Of a stretch of DNA of 64,000 bases, positions 5,671 to 19,293 are shown in pieces. The notes under the pieces were generated by a model. It was not told the DNA's origin. It saw nothing but the letters and a program-made list of their open reading frames with translations, and did no database searches. Numbering within the stretch: the stretch's first letter is position 1; every line of letters begins with the position of its first letter. Source of the stretch: an uncultured Chloroflexia bacterium (GTDB taxonomy: Bacteria; Chloroflexota; Limnocylindria; Limnocylindrales; CSP1-4); assembly GCA_963800795.1 (NCBI GenBank), contig CAWDCJ010000014.1, positions 64,942-128,941 on the forward strand, written 5' to 3'. A program made the translations under genes and the position numbers.

Positions 5671-7371
5671 ATGGCCACCCCACCAGCCCGGACCGCCGCC
5701 GCCCTCCTCGTCGAGTGCCTCGCCGCGGAGGAGTGCGAGTACGTCTTCTCCGTGCCGGGAGAGGAGACGATGGACATCCTCGAGGCGCTCAGCCGCCAGG
5801 ATGCCGTCCGCCACATCACGACGCGCCACGAGCAGGGCGCCGCCTTCATGGCGGACGTCTACGGCCGCCTGACCGGGCGGGCGGCGGTCGCGATGTCCAC
5901 GCTGGGTCCCGGCGCGACGAACCTCGTCACGGGGATCGCGGACGCCTTCCTGGACCGGGCGCCGATGGTCGCCCTGACCGGGCAGGCCGGCTCCGACAAG
6001 ATCCACAAGGAAGCCCACCAGTTCGTGGACATCGTCCGGATGCTGGAGCCGGTGACGAAGTGGAACCAGCGCGTCGGACAGCCGGGCGCGATCCCGGAGA
6101 TCGTGCGCAAGGCATTCCGGGTGGCCCAGCTCGCGAAGCCCGGCCCGACCCACGTGGAGCTGCCGGAGAACATCGCGGCGATGGAGGTGGACGCGGCGCT
6201 CCGGCCGATCGCGCCGTCGCTGGCGTACTTCCCGGAGCCCACCGACGAGGCGATCGCGCACGCCGCCCGGCTGCTGGCGGGATCGCGACGCCCGCTCGTG
6301 CTCGCCGGGAACGGCGTCATCCGCCGCCATGCCGCACCGGAGCTGCGGGCGTTCGCTCGCGGGCTGCACGTTCCGGTTGCGGCGACATTCATGGGCAAGG
6401 GCGCGATCGACGATCGGAGCCACCTGTCGCTCATGGCCGTCGGGCTGCAGGCGCGCGACCACGTGCTCTCGGGCTTCGACCGGGCCGACGTCGTGGTGTC
6501 GGTCGGATACGACCTCGTGGAATACGCGCCGGCCCGCTGGAACCCGGACGGGCACAAGCGGATCGTCCACATCGACACCCAGCCGGCGGAGGTCGACGCC
6601 TTCTACCAGCCGGAGGTCGAGCTCATCGGCGACATCGGCGGCACGCTCCGCCGGCTCCTCGCCGCGATCCTCCCGTACGGCATCGGCGGGCTCGACGCCA
6701 CCGCGCGCCACGCGGCCCGCGAGACGCTCGTCCACCAGGACCTGCGCACGGCGATGCTGGCCGAGCTGGGCGCCTACGAGCACGACGACGGGTGGCCGAT
6801 CCGGCCCCAGAAGGCGATCGCGGACCTGCGCCGGGCGCTCGAGCCGCCGGACATCGTCGTCAGCGACGTGGGCGCGCACAAGATCTGGGTGGCGCGGCTC
6901 TACCAGGCGTACGAGCCGAACACGGTCATCATCTCGAACGGCTTCGCCGCGATGGGGATATCGGTCCCCGGCGCGATCGCCGCGAAGCTGGTCCACCCCG
7001 ATCGGCGCGTGGTCGCCCTGTGCGGCGACGGCGGGTTCCTGATGAACTCGCAGGAGCTCGAGACGGCCCGCCGGATCGGCGCCAACATCACCGTGGTGGT
7101 GTGGCGCGACGACGGCTACGGGCTGATCGACTGGAAGCAGCGCACGGAGTTCGGGCACCCGTTCGGGGTGACGTTCACGAACCCCGACTTCGTCGCGTAT
7201 GCGCAGTCGTTCGGGCTGGCGGCCTTCCGGCCGTCGTCCGCCGACGATCTCTATCCCACGCTGATGCGCGCGCTGGCCCACGACGGCCCGACCCTCGTGG
7301 AGGTCCCCATCGACTATCGCGAGAACGTTCGGCTCACGGAGCGCCTCGGCGCCCTCGCGCATGGTGGATAG
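5671..7371 (+). CDS. thiamine-diphosphate enzyme, acetolactate synthase (catabolic AlsS-like) family
   Basis: 566-aa ORF. N-terminal Pyr domain 'RHEQGAAFMADVYGRLTGR', and ThDP/Mg motif 'GDGGFLMNSQELETA...N'. Its length and single-subunit layout resemble AlsS-type enzymes. Confidence 0.85.
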   Translation: MATPPARTAAALLVECLAAEECEYVFSVPGEETMDILEALSRQDAVRHITTRHEQGAAFMADVYGRLTGRAAVAMSTLGPGATNLVTGIADAFLDRAPMVALTGQAGSDKIHKEAHQFVDIVRMLEPVTKWNQRVGQPGAIPEIVRKAFRVAQLAKPGPTHVELPENIAAMEVDAALRPIAPSLAYFPEPTDEAIAHAARLLAGSRRPLVLAGNGVIRRHAAPELRAFARGLHVPVAATFMGKGAIDDRSHLSLMAVGLQARDHVLSGFDRADVVVSVGYDLVEYAPARWNPDGHKRIVHIDTQPAEVDAFYQPEVELIGDIGGTLRRLLAAILPYGIGGLDATARHAARETLVHQDLRTAMLAELGAYEHDDGWPIRPQKAIADLRRALEPPDIVVSDVGAHKIWVARLYQAYEPNTVIISNGFAAMGISVPGAIAAKLVHPDRRVVALCGDGGFLMNSQELETARRIGANITVVVWRDDGYGLIDWKQRTEFGHPFGVTFTNPDFVAYAQSFGLAAFRPSSADDLYPTLMRALAHDGPTLVEVPIDYRENVRLTERLGALAHGG

Positions 7372-9451: not shown

Positions 9452-10009
9452 TCAGGATCGGGCGGCCGGCCGGTCCCGATCGTGGGCAGTGCCTCTGCGA
9501 TATCGGTCCATCGCGATGTCGATGACGGCCTCGAGCCCGCGCGCGATCTCCGCGTCGCGGCCCGCCTCGAGGGCACGCTCGAGCTCGGGGAGCAGCGCCG
9601 CCCGCGATCGGCCGGCGACGAAGACGCAGTAGCGGAACCCGAACCGCAATTCGTAGGCGGCGTTGAGGCGCTCCAGCTGCGCGGCGATCCGCTCCCCCTC
9701 CAGTCGCGCGGCCGCACCGGCCGCCTCGCGGTCGTAGCCCTGCTCGATGTACGAGTGGGCGGACACGGTTCCGGGGGGCGCGCCGAGCCGCGGGTGGGCG
9801 TCCAGGAGCTCGAGCTTCTCGGGTTCGGGCATCTCCCGCGCGATGCGGCGCGCCGTCGCGAACAGCCGCGTCGCATCCCCGAACGGCCGGGAGTCGCACA
9901 GCCGCGCCAGGAAGCGGGGAGCGCCCTCGAACAGCGGCGCGAGCGCGGCCCGGCACGCGTCCGGGTCGAGCGCGTCGAGCTCGGCGACGGTCGGTGGGCG
10001 GCCCGTCAC
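9452..10009 (-). CDS. uraD: 2-oxo-4-hydroxy-4-carboxy-5-ureidoimidazoline (OHCU) decarboxylase
   Basis: This is the C-terminal ~185 codons of the 842-aa track ORF. Motifs 'FEGAPRF', 'LLDAHPRLGAP', 'LNAAYELRFGFRYCVFVAGRS'. The most likely start is GTG at 10009, just after the uraH stop. The rest of the 842-aa ORF is a shadow ORF. Confidence 0.8.
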   Translation of the reverse strand: MTGRPPTVAELDALDPDACRAALAPLFEGAPRFLARLCDSRPFGDATRLFATARRIAREMPEPEKLELLDAHPRLGAPPGTVSAHSYIEQGYDREAAGAAARLEGERIAAQLERLNAAYELRFGFRYCVFVAGRSRAALLPELERALEAGRDAEIARGLEAVIDIAMDRYRRGTAHDRDRPAARS

Positions 10010-10014
10010 GAGGG

Positions 10015-10347
10015 TCAGGACCCGCGGTACGCCGTGAGCCCGAACGGCGCCAGCAGGAGCGGCAGGTGATAGCTCCGCGCGGCGTCGTCGACCCGGAAGT
10101 CCAGGGCGAGGCCGGTGAAGAACAACTCCCCTGGAAGCACGAACTCGAGGCGGTACGCCCCGGCCTCGAGGGTTCCGCCGGCGAGGAGATCGAGGATGCG
10201 GCCATCGACGTCGGTCACGCCCTCGCCGACGAGCGGCGCGCTGCCGTCCGCGGCCGGCCGCCGAAGCCGGATGGTGACGCCGGCCCGCGGCGTGCCCGCG
10301 GCGGTGTCCAGGAGATGGGTGGAGATCGTCGGCCGGTGCTGGGACAC
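10015..10347 (-). CDS. uraH: 5-hydroxyisourate hydrolase (transthyretin-like)
   Basis: 110-aa ORF, GTG start with GGAGGA RBS. 'ISTHLLDTAAGTPRAGV' and the diagnostic C-terminal 'YRGS'. Confidence 0.9.
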   Translation of the reverse strand: MSQHRPTISTHLLDTAAGTPRAGVTIRLRRPAADGSAPLVGEGVTDVDGRILDLLAGGTLEAGAYRLEFVLPGELFFTGLALDFRVDDAARSYHLPLLLAPFGLTAYRGS

Positions 10348-10363
10348 GCGCTATCCTCCGCCG

Positions 10364-10786
10364 ATGAGCGATCTGTCGATCCGGGTTGGCGACCTGCACT
10401 TTAGCGCCCGGTGGGAGCCCGACGCGCCGCGCACGATCGCCGTCGTCCGCGCCATGCTCCCCCTCCGCGCACGCCTGATCCACTGCCGGTGGAGCGGCGA
10501 GTCGACCTGGATCCCCTATGGCGACCTGCGGCCGGACGTCGGCTGGGAGCACCACACCTCGCACCCGGGCCCGGGGCAGCTGGCCTTGTATCCCGGCGGC
10601 ATCAGCGAGTGCGAGATCTTCGTCCCGTACGGCGCCTGCACGACGTCGTCGAAGGTCGGCCAGCTGGCGGCGAACCACTTCGCGACGATCGAGCCGGATG
10701 CAGGCTGGGCGGAGCGCCTCGGGGAGGTCGGGCGGCGCTGCCTCTGGGAGGGCGCCCAGGAGATCGAGATCGTCGAAGGCGCGTAG
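10364..10786 (+). CDS. DUF3830-family (cyclophilin-like fold) protein
   Basis: ATG at 10364, only 16 bp from the divergent uraH start. 'ARWEPDAPRTIAVVRAMLPLRARLIHCRWSGESTWIPYG' resembles DUF3830 proteins. The hydantoinase-type gene follows 3 bp downstream. Confidence 0.65.
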   Translation: MSDLSIRVGDLHFSARWEPDAPRTIAVVRAMLPLRARLIHCRWSGESTWIPYGDLRPDVGWEHHTSHPGPGQLALYPGGISECEIFVPYGACTTSSKVGQLAANHFATIEPDAGWAERLGEVGRRCLWEGAQEIEIVEGA

Positions 10787-10789
10787 GCG

Positions 10790-12188
10790 GTGATCGACCT
10801 CCTGGTCCGGGGCGGAACGGTCGTCACGCGCGAGGGCTCCACGCGGGCCGACGTCGCCGTCGAGGGCGGCCGGATCACGGCCATCGCGCCCGACCTCGGC
10901 GGCATGGCAGGGTCCGCGCGCGAGGTCGTCGATGCGACGGGCCTGCTCGTGCTCCCGGGTGTCGTCGACGTCCACACGCACGTGCGCGTCGCGACCGACG
11001 AGCGCCCGGACCGCTTCTTCGACGACTCCGTGGCGGCGGCGTTCGGCGGAACAACGACGTTCCTTGCCTTCAACAACCCGGGCACCGGGTCGTCGGATGC
11101 AGCCGCGCGCTCGCTCGAGACGGGCCTCCGCGAATGGCGCGCAGCCACGGCGAGCGACGCAGCGGTGGACGTCGCGCCGAGTCTCGTCATCACCGCGTCG
11201 AGCGAGAACACGGCCGCCGGGATCCGCGCTGCGATCGACGCCGGCGTCCCGACGTTCAAGGCGTTCATGGTCTACGACTTTGGCCTGGACGACGCGGCGA
11301 TCCTCGGGGCGCTCGAGGCGACCGGGCGCCACGGCGGCCTGCTGGAAGTTCACTGTGAGAACCGCGCGATCCTCGAGGCGCTGACGGCGCGCCACCTGGC
11401 CGCGGGCGAGGCGGAGCCCCGCTACCACGCGTCGTCGCGGCCGCCGTACGTGGAGGCGGAGGCGACCGGGCGCGCGATCGCGCTCGCCCGTGCCGCGCGG
11501 GCGCCGCTGTATGTCGTCCATCTCTCGTCGGCGGACGCCCTGGCGGAGGTGCGTGCCGCCCGTGACGAGGGACTCCCGGTATTCGCGGAGACGTGCCCCG
11601 TCTACCTGACCCTCACCGAGGACCGCTACGCCGGCGACCCCGAGACGGCGGCCCGCTACCTGATCTCGCCGCCCCTGCGCGAGCGCGGACAATCCGGACG
11701 CGCTCTGGGCCGGCCTCGCCGAGGGAGCGCTCTCGATCATCGCGACGGACCATGTGCCCGATCGCCTCGCGGTCGAGAAGCAGAGCTGGCGCCAGTCGTT
11801 CGACCGCATCTCGAACGGGGCACCCGGGATCGAGACGCTCCTTCCCGTCGTGTACGACGCCGGTGTCGCCTCGGGGCGGATGACCCTGGGACGGATGGTC
11901 GACCTCCTGTCAACGACGCCAGCGCGCCTCTTCGGGTTCGCCACGAAGGGCGCGCTCGCGGTGGGCCTCGACGCGGACATCGTCCTGTTCGACCCGGCGG
12001 CGCGCAGGACGATCCGCGGCGCCGACCTCCACCACTCGAGCGACTACACGCCGTTCGAGGGCCGCGAGGTCCGCGGCGCGGTCCGCTCCACGATCGTCCG
12101 CGGGGCGTTCGTCGTGCGCGACGGGCGGTTCGTCGGCCGAAGGGGCTACGGCCGATTCGTGGAGCGCGCGATCGAGCCGCTCGCCTGA
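10790..12188 (+). CDS. cyclic amidohydrolase (D-hydantoinase/dihydropyrimidinase/allantoinase family); frameshifted as given
   Basis: GTG start. Metal motif 'GVVDVHTH' and carboxylated-Lys motif 'PTFKAFMVY'. After 'YLISPPLRER' (~11685-11690) the homologous sequence continues in another frame: 'DNPDALWAGLAEGALSIIATDHVPD...NGAPGIE...'. That frame stops at 12188. Confidence 0.8.
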
Positions 12189-12232
12189 CGGCGTTGCTCG
12201 CCTGACGCGGTTCGTCGCCGGGCGTTGCCCGG

Positions 12233-13795
12233 TCAGTCGAGACGGCGGTACGCCTCGAGGGTGAGGAACTCGGCGAGACGGTCCGCGAGGACGAGGTCGT
12301 CGAGCAGCGCCGCGGCATCGGCGACACGCCCGGCATGCGCGCCGATCCGCGCGAGCTCATCGTCACGGATCTGCCGGTAGCGATCGGCCGTGAACGGCGC
12401 GCCGTCGTCGAGAAGGGTCGCGTGACGGCGCCACTGCCAGAGCTGGGTGCGCGAGATCTCGGCCGTCGCCGTGTCCTCCATCAGGTTGTCGATCGCGGCG
12501 GCGCCGTTTCCCTGCAGCCACGAATCCAGGTACCGCAGCGCCACGCTGACGTCCTGGCGGACGCCCGCCTCCGTCACTCGGCCGCCGGGCACCGTCACGT
12601 CGAGGAGCGCCCCCGCCGGGACCTCGCGGTCGCCGGGGGCGTCCTTCTGGTGCGGGCGGTCGCCGAGGACGCGGTCGAACACCGCGCCCGCGACCGGGAC
12701 GAGGTCCGGGTGGGCGACCCAGGTGCCATCGAAGCCGTCGCCCGCCTCGCGCTCCTTGTCCTCCCGGACCCGGACGAGCGCGTTCGCGGTGACCTCCGGC
12801 TCGCGGCGGTTGGGGATGAACGCCGACATGCCGCCGATGGCGTGGGCGCCGCGACGGTGGCAGGTCGCGACGAGCAGGCGCGTATAGGCGCGCATGAACG
12901 GGACCGCCATGGTCACCTGGCCCCGGTCGGGCATGACGAACCCGGCATTCCCCGCGAACCGCTTGATCACGCTGAACAGGTAGTCCCAGCGCCCGGCGTT
13001 GAGACCGGAAGCGTGCTCACGCAGCTCGAAGAGGATTTCGTCCATCTCGAAGGCCGCCAGGATCGTCTCGATCAGCACGGTGGCCCGGACGCTGCCGCGC
13101 GGGATCCCCGTCGCCGCCTGGGCGTGGACGAAGACGTCGTTCCAGAGGCGCGCCTCAAGATGGCCCTCGAGCTTGGGCAGGTAGAGGTACGGACCGGAGC
13201 CACGGGCCAGCGTCTCCGCGGCGTTGTGGAACAGGAAGAGGCCGGCGTCGAACAGGCTCGCCGACACGGGCCGGCCGTCGACGACGACGTGACGCTCCTC
13301 GAGGTGCCAGCCGCGCGGACGAACGAGCAGGGTCGCCGTCCGCTCCGCCAGCCGATAGGCCTTCTCGGGCGTTTCGAAGGCAAGCGTGCGTCGGACGGCC
13401 TGCCGCACCGCGAGCTGGCCGCCGATCACGTTCGCCCAGGTCGGGCTCAGCGCGTCCTCGAAGTCCGCCATGAAGACCCGCGCGCCGGAGTTGAGCGCGT
13501 TGATCATCATCTTCGGCTCGGCGGGGCCGGTGATCTCGACGCGGCGGTCGTCGAGGTCGGGCGGCGGCGGCGCGACCCGCCAGTCGCTCGCGCGGACGTC
13601 CGCCGTCTCGGCGAGGAATCCCGGCAGGACCCCGCGCTCGATCTCCGCATGGCGTGCCGCGCGTCGCCCGAGCAGGGCGCGGCGCTCGTTGCGGAACCGG
13701 CGCTCGAGGTCGGCGACGAACGCAACTGCGTCGGGCGTGAGGACGAGCTCCTGGCCCGGGACGGCGGGCCCGAGGATCTCGACGCCCGGCGCCAT
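12233..13795 (-). CDS. aceB: malate synthase A
   Basis: ATG at 13795 gives 520 aa. '[14 protein letters not shown]', '[17 protein letters not shown]', '[12 protein letters not shown]', 'AFIPNRR'. The size matches the A-type enzyme. Confidence 0.9.
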
Positions 13796-13800
13796 CGCGG

Positions 13801-14646
13801 TCACGACGCTGCCCGCCGGACGGTGGCCTCGATGAGGCCGTGCGGCTCGGTCGTCGCGACGAAGATCTCGCCCCGGTTCGTCCCGCCGAGCGGCGCCAGG
13901 TCGACCGGCCAGTGGTGGAGGTTCGGCAGCGACATGCGGACCTCGTCGATCTCCGCGTGCCGTTCGAGCATGGCGTTGGCCATGATCCAGATCGAGTGCT
14001 GGATCGACTCGCTGGCGTGCTCGGCAAAGACCTCCCGGAGCGTGGCCGAGATCGCCGCGTGGCTCGCGTCCCAATCGTCGGCGGGGCCGCGGTGGCGCCA
14101 GGTCGCCGTCACCTTCGTCGCCATGACCCGGTCGCGCGCATCGGCCAGCGTCGTGTAGCGGTCACGCGGGAAGCCCGAGAACGCGGATCGCGCCGTCTTC
14201 ATCACGACGAGGTCCGCGAGGCCCGACGCAACCATCGTGGCCTCCCGGGTCGCGACCACCTCCGCGGTCCGGGTCGCATCCCCGGCCCGTTGGAAGGCAT
14301 CCGGCGCGGGCGCGCCGTCGACGGGGATCGGCGTCCACTGATGCTCGCGGAGGGAGACGGTCGACCGCACGACCTGGGGGAAACCGAGGAAATGCTCGGC
14401 CAGGACCGCCCCGAACGCCTCGATGGCGCCGGTGAGCTGGTCCGCCGCGAGGGCGTAGACGGTGTTCTTCATCGTTTCTGTCGCGACGACCTGCGCGTTG
14501 TCGCCGGCCTTGAACGCGGTCGCGAAGTCCCCCTCGAGTGCGACGTCGACGGTGAGATCGCGGACCGTGTGTTCCTCGGGCCCACGAACAACCTTGACGA
14601 CCCGAATCGCGCGCTTGCCATATCGGTTCGGGCCGAGGTCGATCAC
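13801..14646 (-). CDS. uox: urate oxidase (uricase)
   Basis: GTG at 14646 preceded by AGGAGG. '[13 protein letters not shown]', '[10 protein letters not shown]', '[12 protein letters not shown]', 'SIQHSIW' fit the two-T-fold uricase family. The stop lies 5 bp upstream of the aceB start. Confidence 0.9.
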
Positions 14647-14708
14647 GGCGGTCCTCCTGGGACGGGCTGGAGTCGGGCAAGGGTGCCGTCGAGCGCCGCG
14701 GACGTCAA

Positions 14709-14820
14709 GGCGCCGTATCGCGGCGGCGCCGTATCGCGGCGGCGCCGTATCGCGGCGGCGCCGTATCGCGGCGGCGCCGTATCGCGGCGGCGCCATATCG
14801 CGGCAGCACCGTGTCGAGGC
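14709..14820. repeat. 16-bp tandem repeat (GGCGCCGTATCGCGGC): 5 perfect copies, one 1-mismatch copy and one degenerate copy
   Basis: Read directly. Units start at 14709, 14725, 14741, 14757 and 14773 (identical), 14789 (G->A) and 14805 (12/16 match). The array is intergenic, between the D-aminoacylase stop (14857) and the uricase start (14646). The period is not a multiple of 3. Confidence 0.95.
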
Positions 14821-14856
14821 GGCGCGCCGTCCGTTCGTCATCCCGTCGGTCGACGA

Positions 14857-16489
14857 TCAGTCGCGGCGTCCGCGGCGGAGCGCGCGGCCGGGCGTCGCGC
14901 CGGTGTGCTCGCCGCCGTCGACCACCAGGACCCCGTTCACCAGCACGTACGGGATGCCCTCGGGGTAGCGGCGCGGCTCGTCGTACGTCGCCAGCGCCCG
15001 CACGCGCGCCGGGTCGAACACGACCAGGTCCGCCTTGAAGCCATCCGCGAGGACGCCCCGATCGGCGAGACCGAGCCGAGCGGCCGGTGCCCCGGTCATC
15101 TTCCGGACGGCGTCCTCCAGGCCCAGCCAGCGCTCCTCGCGGACGAACTCGCCGAGGATGCGCGGATAGGTCCCGTAGGTGCGAGGCGCCGGCTTCGCCG
15201 CGATCATCACGCCGTCCGTGGCGATCATCGCCCGGGGATGCCGGATGAACGGCCGGATCCCCGCCAGGTGGGGCCCGGGCGTCACCTGGTTGATCCGCAG
15301 GTCCTCCGCGAGCAGCAGGTCGCAGATCGCGTCGACCGGGTCCAGCCCGGTCGCCTTGAGGTACGCGCCGAGCGTCCGGCCCTCCCATTCCGCGTTCTCC
15401 GGGCGGGCGAAGTACCCCAGCCTGACCTCGTCCCACGAGCGGTCGCCGGCAAAGAGGCGCCCGCGGGCAGCGGCCTCCTGGCGAACGCGCGCCCGCACCG
15501 TGCGATCGGCGAGGCGCTCCCGGAGCGGGCCTACCCCGCCGGCCTGGAGCCAGTTCGGCAGCATGATCAGCAGCCGGGTGCTCGCCCACTCGTAGGGGTA
15601 GAGGTCGAACGTGACGTCAAGGCCCGCGGCCCGCGCGTCGTCGACGAGGGCGAGCATCACCTCCGGCGAGCCCGGGAAGGTCGGCCGGTGGTAGAAGTGG
15701 GTGATGTGGACCGGGGCGCCGGACCGTCGCCCGATCTCGATCGCCTCGCGGTACGGGTCGAGGAACCCGTCGCCCAGCGGATACCGGACATGGGTGTGGT
15801 AGATCCCACCGAGCCCGGCGACAACGGCTCGCCAGCTCGGCCAGCTCGGCGGTCGTCGCGTACGACCCGGGCGGGTAGTCGAGGCCGGTGGACAGGCCGA
15901 AGGCGCCATCCTCCAGGGCCTCCCGGAGGCGCGACCGCTGGTCCGCCATCGCGCGGGTGTCCGCTTCCACCTCGTCCCAGCCAACCGATGCGATCCGGAG
16001 CGGTGAGTTCCCGACGACGTACGCGACGTTGACCGAGGTCGTCCCGTCGTACCGCGCGAGGTAGTCGGAGACCGTGGACCAGTCGTAGGCGATCTCCGGC
16101 CGGCCGTCGAGCCCGCCATTGAGGACGACGTAGTCAAGGAGGTCGCGTCGCGACGGGAACGGCGCGTAGGCGTTGCCGTCGACGCCGATCAGCTCGGTTG
16201 TGACGCCCTGTCGAACCTTGGGCTCGTGGAGCGGCTCGGCGAGCATCACCAGCCCGCCGTGGCTGTGGAGGTCGATGAACCCCGGCGCGATCACGAGGCC
16301 GCGGGCGTCGATCGTTCGGCCGGCCCGGATCCCGGAAGCGCCGCGATCGTCCGTCGCCGCCCGCCGATCGCCGTCCGGCAGGACGATCAGGCGGTCGCCG
16401 AGGACGGCGACCGAGCCCGGAAAGCCGGGCCGCCCGGTCCCGTCGACGATCGTGCCGCCGTCGACCAGGACGTCCGCGTCGATCGTCAT
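14857..16489 (-). CDS. N-acyl-D-amino-acid deacylase (D-aminoacylase) family amidohydrolase; frameshifted as given
   Basis: ATG at 16489. 'GFIDLHSHGG' lies in the N-terminal ORF (15617..16573 track ORF). 'GGIYHTHVRY' and 'VHITHFYH' lie in the C-terminal ORF (14857..16137). The junction 'YATTAELAELAS|AVVAGLGG' places one indel near 15826-15834. Confidence 0.8.
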
Positions 16490-18074: not shown

Positions 18075-18112
18075 GAGAGCTCCTGTTCGAGTTCGATCCG
18101 GTGCGATGTGGG

Positions 18113-18168
18113 TTCTGGATCGATCAAGAACATCGCCACTGTACACGAAGGGTCTGGATCGGTCAAGA
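18113..18168. promoter_or_regulatory. two copies of a 16-18-bp palindrome (TTCTGGATCGATCAAGAA / TCTGGATCGGTCAAGA), candidate LacI-type operators
   Basis: Sites at 18113-18130 and 18153-18168 share a core with one mismatch and have central CG symmetry. They are spaced 39 bp apart in the 101-bp divergent intergenic region upstream of the LacI-family gene. Confidence 0.5.
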
Positions 18169-18175
18169 TGACGCC

Positions 18176-19293
18176 ATGGACGACCGATCGAGCCCCCCGC
18201 GCCGGTTCACGCTCCGTGATCTCGCGAAATCCCTGGGCGTCTCGAAGACGACGGTCTCCAACGCGTTCAGCCGTCCCGACCAGCTCTCCCCTGCGCTGCG
18301 CGATCGCGTCCTCGAGGCCGCCCGCGCCGAGGGATACGCGGGCCCGGACCCGGTTGCCCGGATGCTCCGCACCGGCCGGGCCGGCGCGTTGGGCCTCATC
18401 CTCCCCGAGTCGCTCCCATTCGCGCTCGACGACCCATCGACCAGCGAGCTCATCCGGGGCATCGCCGACGCGTGCGAGGAGCGGCGGCTGGGCCTGCTCG
18501 TGATCCCGGGCGCCAGCCGCGTGCGCGACCCTCGCGCCATCACGGACGTCGCGGTCGACGGGTTCATCGCCTACTCGCTGCCGTCGGACACGGCGGTGCT
18601 GCACCAGGTGCTCGCGCGCGGCGTACCGGTCGTCGTTGTCGACGAGCCTCGCCTGCCCGGGGTCGCGACGGTCAGCATCGACGATCCGGGCGGCGCCCGG
18701 CTGGCGGCGCGCCACCTCCTCGAGCTGGGCCACCGCCGGCTCGGCATCGTGACCCTGCCGTTCAGGTCCGATGGGTACACCGGCCAGGGTGACGAGGCCC
18801 GCATCGAGGCGGCGACCTACGACGTGGCGGCGCGGAGGCTCGGCGGATACCGCGCGGCGCTTGCCGACGCGGGCCTGGCGGGCGATGACGTATCCGTCTA
18901 CGAGTGCGCACACAGCGACGAGGAGCTCGGTCGGCAGGCCGGGCGGGCCTCCTGGAGCGGGCCGTGCCACCGACGGCGATCCTCGCGATGAGCGACCGGC
19001 TTGCCCTCGGCGTGCTTGCCGCCGCACGGGAGCTGCGCGTCGACGTGCCGCGGTCGCTCGCCGTCGTGGGCTTCGACGACATCGCCGCGGCCGCGAAGAG
19101 CCGGCCGTCGCTGACGACGATCCGCCAGCCGCTCCGCCTGAAGGGCTACGCGGCGGCGCGGTTCCTGCTCGACGCCCCGCATGCGCGCCCCCGGGACTCG
19201 GCCGCGAGGACGGTCGCGGCCGGCAGCGACGAGCTGGACTTCCCGGTCGAGCTCGTGATCCGGCGCTCCACCGCGGCGGCCGCCGCATCCTGA
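18176..19293 (+). CDS. LacI-family transcriptional regulator; frameshifted as given
   Basis: ATG at 18176. HTH 'FTLRDLAKSLGVSKTTVSNAFS'. The periplasmic-binding-fold body continues after ~18940-18950 in another frame: 'GRQAGRA|LLERAVPPTAILAMSDRLALGVL...VVGFDDI'. Confidence 0.85.

Follow-up and report, generated by a model that had tools for sequence, protein, structure and literature searches.

We analyzed a window of 64,000 nucleotides (contig CAWDCJ010000014.1 of assembly GCA_963800795.1, positions 64,942 to 128,941) from an uncultured Chloroflexia bacterium of the order Limnocylindrales. Between positions 9452 and 16489, it carries a urate breakdown cluster (Table 1), which we describe here as a variant of a well-known pathway with candidate nonhomologous replacements for two or three of its enzymes. 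In that pathway, urate is converted via 5-hydroxyisourate (HIU) and 2-oxo-4-hydroxy-4-carboxy-5-ureidoimidazoline (OHCU) to allantoin, and then via allantoate and ureidoglycolate to glyoxylate, which malate synthase consumes. A first-pass annotation of the sequence had listed a uricase with malate synthase A close behind it, an HIU hydrolase (HIUase) with a YRGS tail, an OHCU decarboxylase, a DUF3830 gene coupled to a cyclic amidohydrolase of the hydantoinase/allantoinase type, and an adjacent D-aminoacylase-type amidohydrolase. All of these genes were located, as were the two short intergenic gaps. We refer to the cyclic amidohydrolase as Hyd and to the D-acylase-family amidohydrolase as Amh.

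Table 1. Features of the urate cluster, in window coordinates (cutoffs in brackets after bit scores)
Feature	Position	Strand	Description
OHCU decarboxylase (UraD)	9452..10009	-	185 aa; GTG start, 5 bp from HIUase stop; PF09349 106.8 bits (24)
HIUase (5-hydroxyisourate hydrolase, transthyretin-like)	10015..10347	-	110 aa; C-terminal AYRGS; PF00576 75.5 bits (25.3)
Divergent spacer between HIUase and DUF3830 start codons	10348..10363		16 bp, read directly from the sequence
DUF3830 protein	10364..10786	+	140 aa; PF12903 83.3 bits (26), profile positions 2-141 of 143
Cyclic amidohydrolase Hyd, D-hydantoinase/dihydropyrimidinase type	10790..12188	+	GTG start 3 bp past DUF3830 stop; frame split by an extra base near 11680-11690
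Malate synthase A	12233..13795	-	520 aa; ATG start 5 bp past uricase stop; TIGR01344 705.5 bits (594.5)
Cofactor-independent urate oxidase (uricase)	13801..14646	-	281 aa; GTG start; TIGR03383 293.8 bits (168.4)
16-bp tandem repeat, unit GGCGCCGTATCGCGGC	14709..14825		7.3 copies (Tandem Repeats Finder); between Amh stop and uricase start
D-acylase-family amidohydrolase Amh	14857..16489	-	Frame split by an extra base near 15815-15830

Genes were delimited by frame analysis based on G+C content at third codon positions (GC3), by translation, and by family profile searches. The OHCU decarboxylase matches PF09349 over its full length (profile positions 8 to 154 of 155), which places it in the family, and scores below the cutoffs of the TIGRFAM equivalogs. 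The HIUase scores 80.2 bits on TIGR02962, slightly below the cutoff of 87.45; the C-terminal YRGS tetrapeptide separates HIUases from transthyretins, and this tail together with the PF00576 match identifies the protein as an HIUase. Malate synthase A has the N-terminal, TIM-barrel, and C-terminal Pfam domains of its family, and the uricase has two PF01014 stretches, the tandem T-fold domains expected of that family. The DUF3830 and Hyd genes are translationally coupled. Since the divergent start codons of the HIUase and DUF3830 genes are only 16 bp apart, both promoters must lie inside the neighboring coding regions or the mRNAs must be leaderless. In 80 related loci, this spacer is about 14 to 43 bp in most and 14 to 17 bp in many.

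The tandem repeat in front of the uricase gene varies in copy number between strains: between 14715 and 14796, contigs from three peat metagenomes lack 80 bp, equal to 5 units. The array could act as a set of operator-like sites or represent a variable-number repeat within the promoter region of uricase. Between the convergent stop codons of Hyd and malate synthase (12189-12232), related strains have a 16-bp insertion at 12197 or 12203, which may be a variable terminator hairpin. The genes for xanthine dehydrogenase (XDH) lie outside the window, with matches to the molybdenum-cofactor subunit on contigs C11 and C1 of the same genome. A thiamine pyrophosphate enzyme near the cluster (5671-7371) was considered as a glyoxylate carboligase and rejected, as it scores 279 bits on the Gcl model against a cutoff of 791; it is of the acetolactate synthase type (PRK08322, 724 bits, above cutoff).

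Reading frames and assembly quality

The window is part of contig C14 of a metagenome-assembled genome (MAG) of 15 contigs and 2.65 Mb that is scored as 72% complete. Its G+C content is 73%, and the closest relatives of its genes are in soil, peat, and groundwater MAGs of the Limnocylindrales (Chloroflexota). In this assembly, the Hyd and Amh genes are both broken across two reading frames. In short-read orthologues (loci L004, L028, and L034), by contrast, Hyd is a single open reading frame (ORF) of 466 aa, Amh is one uninterrupted frame of 580 to 586 codons from stop to stop, and both align across the two frames of the window copies. Short-read contigs from four independent peat metagenomes, mostly 95 to 99% identical to the window where they cover it, have a net loss of one base at 11680-11685 in three runs and of one base at 15830 in four runs, which exactly restores both frames. 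A conservative, if crude, GC3 frame-switch detector reported 125 candidate frame switches without a stop codon in the MAG, or 47 per Mb; for comparison, short-read loci of relatives gave 3.4 per Mb and long-read loci from the same type of project gave 33 per Mb. Such a density is typical of an unpolished long-read MAG.

Because the short-read orthologues are intact, the metagenome contigs lack one base at each site, and the indel rate of the genome is high, the two frameshifts are long-read assembly errors of one extra base each. The same evidence led us to reject the possibility that Hyd and Amh are true pseudogenes, and both should be treated as functional genes in the organism. Broken marker genes would lower a completeness score, so the figure of 72% may be an underestimate. 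Elsewhere in the window, a LacI-family regulator is also split over two frames (18101-19293), with the helix-turn-helix and N-terminal sugar-binding part at 18101-18991 and the C-terminal Peripla_BP_3 part at 18904-19293; this is probably another assembly indel. A phosphoesterase-family ORF at 7361-8620 matches its profile only at positions 103 to 356, beginning at residue 180, and the codon-position G+C of its first third is atypical, which suggests a further frameshift upstream.

Distribution of pathway genes within the order

The lack of any recognizable allantoate or ureidoglycolate enzyme, noted for the window in the first-pass annotation, extends to the whole MAG. Six-frame, frameshift-tolerant searches of the genome gave no match to allantoicase (PF03561, TIGR02961), to the ureidoglycolate lyase AllA (PF04115), to the AllC-type M20 hydrolase (TIGR03176) at E ≤ 0.001, or to the bicupin ureidoglycine aminohydrolase (UGlyAH; TIGR03214) at its cutoff of 200 bits. 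As the MAG is only 72% complete, we repeated the searches in 120 genomes from the same order with a completeness of 90% or more.

Uricase was found in 58 of the 120 genomes. DUF3830 is present in 57, all of them uricase positive, and in none of the 62 uricase-negative genomes; in the single exception (G088), the contig ends about 800 bp from the uricase gene. The orthologue of Amh (identity of 62% or more, with paralogues at 42% or less) occurs in the same 58 genomes as uricase and in none of the others, and it follows the uricase distribution even where it is 25 to 28 kb away or on another contig. The association of DUF3830 with purine genes, a check proposed in the first pass, is thus clear within the order, and it recurs in haloarchaeal urate clusters. 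Neither of the two outcomes that would have refuted the first-pass interpretation was observed, and the interpretation is supported.

The known enzymes are distributed differently. Allantoicase was found in one uricase-negative genome (G033) and AllA in two genomes, one of them uricase positive (G022). An AllC-like M20 hydrolase (E ≤ 1e-20) was found in four, all below the model cutoff and one uricase positive (G104). AllB exceeded its cutoff in three genomes (G033 and the uricase-positive G059 and G104). PuuE was found in none of the 120, nor was UGlyAH over its cutoff (best score, 30.5 bits). Allantoicase, AllA, and the AllC-like M20 hydrolase are all missing from 56 of the 58 uricase-positive genomes, and AllB over its cutoff is likewise missing from 56 of 58. 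Apart from the hydantoinase-type gene, which is a partial exception, 56 of the 58 uricase-bearing genomes therefore lack the known enzymes leading from allantoin to glyoxylate.

Genome G033, which has neither uricase nor DUF3830, carries genes for an AllC-like M20 hydrolase, allantoicase, and AllB side by side (contig C27, 22330-26937). This canonical allB-alc-allC cluster shows that the searches work in the lineage and that both versions of the pathway occur within the order. The completeness of the MAG and its many candidate frameshifts would be compatible with an artifact, in which canonical alc, allC, allA, and allE genes lie in the unassembled 28% or are hidden by broken frames. However, the searches tolerated frameshifts, detected the canonical cluster in G033, and gave matches in control genomes, and the same absence is seen in 56 of 58 relatives that are at least 90% complete. 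For this last reason the hole in the pathway is real and not a product of an incomplete MAG, and we regard the artifact explanation as close to refuted.

Several genera are mixed, and in them the cluster genes are gained or lost together (1 of 10 genomes in genus g1, 4 or 5 of 14 in g2, 4 of 5 in g8, and 2 of 8 in g21). Urease was considered as a marker that might separate a urea-releasing from an ammonia-releasing route. Its alpha subunit was not found in our MAG and occurs in about 31 to 34 of the 58 cluster-bearing relatives and also in several that lack the cluster; it has no discriminating value and was dropped.

Across 80 species-level loci, DUF3830 adjoins the HIUase gene in every case, and OHCU decarboxylase and Hyd are adjacent in nearly all; where one of these two neighbors is missing, the locus is in most cases truncated at the end of its contig. 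Many loci have uricase, three XDH subunits, Amh, and a further amidohydrolase in one run (e.g., L007), which embeds Amh in a purine operon. Clustering of the ORFs over the 80 loci brought up no further conserved pathway candidate. A 430-aa protein downstream of uricase in 20 loci (e.g., L036, 6908-8203) was considered as a fourth pathway gene and rejected, as its usual neighbors are Ku and LigD and the orthologue in our MAG is on another contig (C11, 590707-591912). It has no Pfam match, is soluble (a single hydrophobic window), and shows a possible nuclease-like D...EAK motif; it is probably a DNA repair gene and not a purine gene.

Candidate enzymes for the missing steps

The cyclic amidohydrolase named in the first pass is present, and its type can be narrowed: it is of the D-hydantoinase/dihydropyrimidinase type and not AllB. 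As the window copy is split (260.5 and 169.5 bits on TIGR02033 in its two frames), Hyd was scored via the intact orthologue L004, which reaches 443.7 bits on TIGR02033 (cutoff, 393.25) and 277.7 bits on the AllB model TIGR03178 (cutoff, 357.85); on the latter model, the copies linked to the cluster in relatives reach about 290 bits. Among solved structures, D-hydantoinases match at 348 bits and allantoinases at 177 to 188 bits. Hyd shares with D-hydantoinases (TIGR02033; 4KQN and 1K1D) and with AllB (3E74) the cyclic amidohydrolase fold and, by prediction, the ring opening of hydantoins or dihydropyrimidines by hydrolysis. Its motifs DVHTH, FKAFM, VHCEN, VVHLS, and TDH all align with those of the D-hydantoinase 4KQN, with every residue kept that we take to be a binuclear-metal ligand (His-x-His, two further His, and Asp) or the carbamylated Lys. 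Two substrate-gate loops are each two residues shorter than in 4KQN and the Bacillus D-hydantoinase. Gene context points to allantoin as the predicted substrate.

Within the amidohydrolase superfamily, Amh falls in the D-acylase branch (9G5M KleDacyl, 1M7J, and 3GIP at 195 to 213 bits) and passes no curated NCBIfam model (PRK09061, 191.6 bits against a cutoff of 340). In Alcaligenes faecalis numbering, it retains five of the six active-site residues of D-aminoacylase, His67, His69, His220, His250, and Asp366, which, together with the zinc ligand Cys96, we take from the 1M7J work to be the metal-binding and catalytic residues. The position of Cys96 is occupied by Asp (GVDGN) in Amh and in all 24 orthologues examined, so the full six-residue D-aminoacylase signature is not present. 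Amh and the D-acylases have in common the Amidohydro_3 fold and, as predicted for Amh, the cleavage of an N-acyl-type amide on an alpha-substituted acid; they differ in this Cys-to-Asp exchange, in the central alpha/beta insertion, and in the substrate, which for Amh would be a ureido acid (allantoate) instead of an N-acyl-D-amino acid. We predict that Amh is an analogue of allantoate amidohydrolase.

DUF3830 is the best conserved gene of the cluster, with 74 to 94% identity across the 80 loci compared with about 45 to 85% for the HIUase, and an exhaustive search found 779 representatives of the domain at 50% clustering. In an alignment of 27 diverse members, Glu62, Gly71, Tyr89, and Gly99 are invariant, and the motifs R-W-S-G-E (42-46), S-E-x-E (83-86, including Glu84), and G-N-H-F (103-106) are nearly so. 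A single-sequence search of the Protein Data Bank found no match, while a profile of relatives reached 3KOP, a structural-genomics DUF3830 protein without known function, at an E value of 1e-8. The AlphaFold2 model (predicted local distance difference test, 96; predicted template-modeling [TM] score, 0.90) is a cyclophilin-like barrel with 3KOP as its best fold match (TM score, 0.81), in agreement with membership in PF12903. The bacterial Pictet-Spenglerases KslB (9NST) and McbB (3X27) match at TM scores of 0.7 to 0.8 with 16 to 18% identity, and atypical cyclophilins are also among the matches.

Ureidoglycine is an aminal and ureidoglycolate a hemiaminal of glyoxylate. Their conversion would run through the same kind of iminium species as the Pictet-Spenglerase reaction, and the fold of DUF3830 would therefore fit the chemistry proposed for it below. 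At the level of fold, McbB, KslB, 3KOP, and DUF3830 share the barrel, and a conserved acidic residue is a candidate general acid/base. In KslB, iminium chemistry between an alpha-amino group and a carbonyl carbon cannot proceed without a single Glu, Glu274, the counterpart of Glu97 in McbB (PMC12012969). The differences are substantial: identity to the three proteins is 16 to 20%, DUF3830 is a single domain of 140 aa compared with about 300 aa, and nothing points to a condensation reaction for DUF3830.

We propose that the cluster encodes a complete noncanonical route from urate to malate, in which Hyd would serve as allantoinase, Amh as the allantoate amidohydrolase analogue, and DUF3830 as an enzyme acting on ureidoglycine or ureidoglycolate, and we put the probability of this reading at roughly 0.5. 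The scheme is supported by comparative evidence, from which we infer which protein takes which step; the specific roles given to Hyd, Amh, and DUF3830 are tentative. Noncanonical ureide steps by DUF3830 or the D-acylase-like enzyme, as suggested in the first pass, would be part of such a route. Uricase, HIUase, and OHCU decarboxylase make (S)-allantoin and malate synthase A uses glyoxylate, both by virtue of strong family membership. Between them, Hyd would convert allantoin to allantoate by opening the hydantoin ring, replacing AllB or PuuE. Amh would hydrolyze a ureido (N-carbamoyl) group of allantoate to release ureidoglycine, CO2, and NH3, the job of the M20 enzyme AllC, at a mononuclear or binuclear metal site in which the usual Cys ligand is swapped for Asp. 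DUF3830 would convert ureidoglycine, an unstable aminal, to ureidoglycolate or directly to glyoxylate, in place of the cupin UGlyAH, the lyase AllA, or both. Amh may in addition decarbamoylate ureidoglycolate, as ureidoglycolate amidohydrolase (UAH) does; UAH and allantoate amidohydrolase (AAH) are paralogues.

Wider contexts of DUF3830 were collected by a protein search of plasmid records, from annotated regions, and by tblastn classification. Haloarchaeal DUF3830 proteins are 36 to 42% identical to that of the window. On pHV3 of Haloferax volcanii, XDH-like subunits are found near the gene order M20 hydrolase, DUF3830, SLC23 permease, Hyd homologue (38% identity), uraD, pucL, and uraH. Halalkalicoccus has Hyd with DUF3830 behind it, near uraD, pucL, and uraH. 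In Halorubrum, genes for a transporter, Hyd, an M20 hydrolase, DUF3830, and a D-2-hydroxyacid dehydrogenase overlap and form one operon, and Natrinema has an M20 hydrolase, DUF3830, and a D-2-hydroxyacid dehydrogenase followed by an ATP-binding cassette (ABC) transporter and a Hyd homologue. The DUF3830 genes of Haladaptatus and Natronorubrum (about 36% identity) have a different context linked to a short-chain dehydrogenase/reductase. Metagenome contigs with distant DUF3830 relatives are mostly short; one informative contig (L084) carries uricase, DUF3830, and an M20 hydrolase in a row. Of 12 annotated plasmid loci from Proteobacteria and haloarchaea, 8 have a Hyd-type gene (33 to 43% identity) no more than 12 kb from DUF3830, and in none is DUF3830 accompanied by an Amh-type gene. 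The presence of an M20 hydrolase next to DUF3830 in haloarchaea and of Amh in Limnocylindrales implies that DUF3830 is constant while the decarbamoylase slot varies. The simplest scheme to cover every context would then be modular, with a cyclic amidohydrolase, a decarbamoylase that differs between lineages (M20 in haloarchaea, Amh in Limnocylindrales, and perhaps a formamidase-type enzyme in Proteobacteria), and a constant DUF3830.

Several points weigh against this route. First, two proteins face three canonical steps, so one step must be shared, be spontaneous, or be carried out by something unseen: Amh might also act on ureidoglycolate, DUF3830 might free glyoxylate directly, or one step might proceed without an enzyme. 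Second, Hyd exceeds the NCBI equivalog cutoff for dihydropyrimidinase and not that for allantoinase, and it retains in the alignment Phe152, Tyr155, and Phe159, which are presumably the hydrophobic gate residues of D-hydantoinases. Third, Hyd, DUF3830, and Amh are linked to uricase and the genomes are related, so the counts overstate their support and are better taken as a handful of events than as 58.

The fourth point concerns proteobacterial DUF3830 proteins, which at 45 to 54% identity are closer to the window protein than the haloarchaeal ones and lie in clusters without urate genes, beside formamidases, ring-opening amidohydrolases, and enzymes that are dihydrodipicolinate synthase-like (DHDPS-like) or flavin adenine dinucleotide (FAD) dependent. 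Azospirillum has a cyclic amidohydrolase 15 bp from DUF3830, next to a formamidase and an amidohydrolase, and Skermanella has an "allB" near a ring-opening amidohydrolase, a formamidase, and DUF3830. Plasmids pAt of Agrobacterium vitis (L094) and pBN1 of Paraburkholderia (L088) carry hydA and DUF3830 (77 bp apart in A. vitis) with a DHDPS-like enzyme, a large FAD oxidoreductase, and amino acid ABC transporters, in what looks like a cluster for catabolism of an N-heterocycle or an opine-like compound. On pRL10 of Rhizobium johnstonii, DUF3830 is found with two amidohydrolases, a racemase-family protein, and RidA. Because of these relatives in clusters without urate genes, the family is not exclusive to purine catabolism, and its substrates may be a wider class of ring-opened ureides.

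The same clusters could be taken to mean that Hyd, DUF3830, and Amh make up a module of their own that serves another substrate, such as dihydropyrimidines, 5-substituted hydantoins, or N-acyl- or N-carbamoyl-D-amino acids, and is merely colocated with the urate genes, and that purine breakdown ends at allantoin or uses unrecognized genes. The scores and solved relatives of Hyd fit this idea, as do the D-acylases nearest to Amh, and a hydantoinase followed by a decarbamoylase is the classical hydantoin/pyrimidine route. We nevertheless consider such a module quite improbable. The strict copresence with uricase in 120 genomes extends to within-genus gains and losses and to nonadjacent Amh genes; DUF3830 is transcribed divergently from the HIUase-OHCU decarboxylase pair across 16 bp; and malate synthase is built into the uricase operon, which implies that glyoxylate is produced. 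A cluster so divided would lack even an allantoinase, as 56 of the 58 genomes have neither AllB over its cutoff nor PuuE. Moreover, Amh has Asp where characterized D-acylases have a Cys metal ligand.

DUF3830 might alternatively be a partner of Hyd (a subunit or specificity factor, an allantoin/hydantoin racemase, or a product chaperone), the pair acting as allantoinase and Amh acting on allantoate, with ureidoglycine decaying nonenzymatically to glyoxylate, urea, and ammonia. The two genes are 3 bp apart in the window and adjacent in nearly all 80 loci, and among the 8 plasmid loci with a Hyd-type gene nearby, several have it immediately next to DUF3830 (15 bp in Azospirillum, 77 bp in A. vitis, and 100 bp in Halalkalicoccus). 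Ureidoglycine is chemically unstable, so a further enzyme is not strictly needed. Against this, the gene to which DUF3830 is coupled in H. volcanii, Halorubrum, Natrinema, and contig L084 is an M20 hydrolase gene, and the Hyd homologue of H. volcanii lies beyond a permease gene. To our knowledge, characterized hydantoinases and allantoinases need no partner of this kind. DUF3830 is also the best conserved protein of the cluster, with an invariant Glu and conserved polar motifs that look like an active site. A structure prediction of Hyd together with DUF3830 returned no answer (score, 0.00), which counts neither for nor against binding. We regard the partner role as unlikely.

The complete route from urate to malate can be put in a stronger form, which we offer as a possible but still doubtful extension. 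DUF3830 would be a new cofactor-less family of cyclophilin-like barrels that uses Glu as general acid/base in the breakdown of (S)-ureidoglycine or ureidoglycolate, and the D-acylase clade with the Asp exchange would provide a new allantoate amidohydrolase outside the M20 family. With Hyd as a recruited D-hydantoinase, they would make up a third, fully nonhomologous version of the pathway from allantoin to glyoxylate, modular in Chloroflexota and haloarchaea, that closes the gap in H. volcanii.

Purine and ureide catabolism is textbook nitrogen metabolism, and many genomes are annotated as urate degraders without a route to glyoxylate. If the proposal is true, allantoate amidohydrolase and the ureidoglycine/ureidoglycolate conversion gain nonhomologous isofunctional enzymes, DUF3830 receives its first function as a domain, and an explicit published gap in H. 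volcanii is closed. Models of the abundant Limnocylindria of soil and peat would shift from "excretes allantoin" to the use of purines as a carbon and nitrogen source. The NCBI equivalog would name Hyd a dihydropyrimidinase, which is probably wrong in this context. Three recombinant proteins, or a single knockout in a tractable archaeon, would allow a direct test of the proposal, and A. vitis and Paraburkholderia, as cultivable hosts of hydA-DUF3830 pairs, could serve to test DUF3830.

Comparison with known pathways

In the searchable literature, we found no function for DUF3830 or for the Amh clade, and no paper mentioning DUF3830. New here are the order-wide three-way phyletic match that includes Amh, the canonical control genome within the order, the Cys-to-Asp signature of Amh, and the proof that the frameshifts are assembly errors.

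Compared with the canonical ureide pathways (AllB-AllC-AllE[UGlyAH]-AllA/AllD in Escherichia coli and PuuE-Alc-AllA of the Pseudomonas type), the window cluster has the same entry steps to (S)-allantoin and the same exit through malate synthase. The chemistry needed in between, namely, ring opening, loss of the ureido groups, and release of glyoxylate, is also the same. The difference lies in the proteins, as the AllB, PuuE, Alc, AllC, AllE, and AllA families were not found in our searches and Hyd, Amh, and DUF3830 stand in their places.

Another noncanonical way past allantoate, with a ureidoglycine carbamoyltransferase, was proposed for Rubrobacter xylanophilus by Barba et al. in 2013 (PMC4016543). 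Both routes are proposals, and Rubrobacter has a high-GC, Gram-positive-type genome. The Rubrobacter route uses a transferase resembling aspartate or ornithine carbamoyltransferase (ATCase/OTCase), and the conserved window cluster has no such gene.

The closest parallel is the pHV3 cluster of H. volcanii (HVO_B0299-B0310), which shares with the window uraD, pucL, uraH, the Hyd homologue, DUF3830 (42% identity), and XDH-like subunits nearby. Pfeiffer and Dyall-Smith (2021) predicted the H. volcanii Hyd homologue to be an allantoinase, although KEGG lists it as dihydropyrimidinase (PMC8305020, Suppl. S9.g). They assigned the M20 enzyme to ureidoglycolate hydrolysis and left the conversion of allantoate to ureidoglycolate as a gap, and the DUF3830 gene was not discussed (PMC8305020). 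In H. volcanii, DUF3830 (HVO_RS01470) lies 27 bp behind the M20 hydrolase gene (amaB4, HVO_B0306) and there is no Amh-type gene, whereas the window has no M20 hydrolase, carries Amh, and couples DUF3830 to Hyd.

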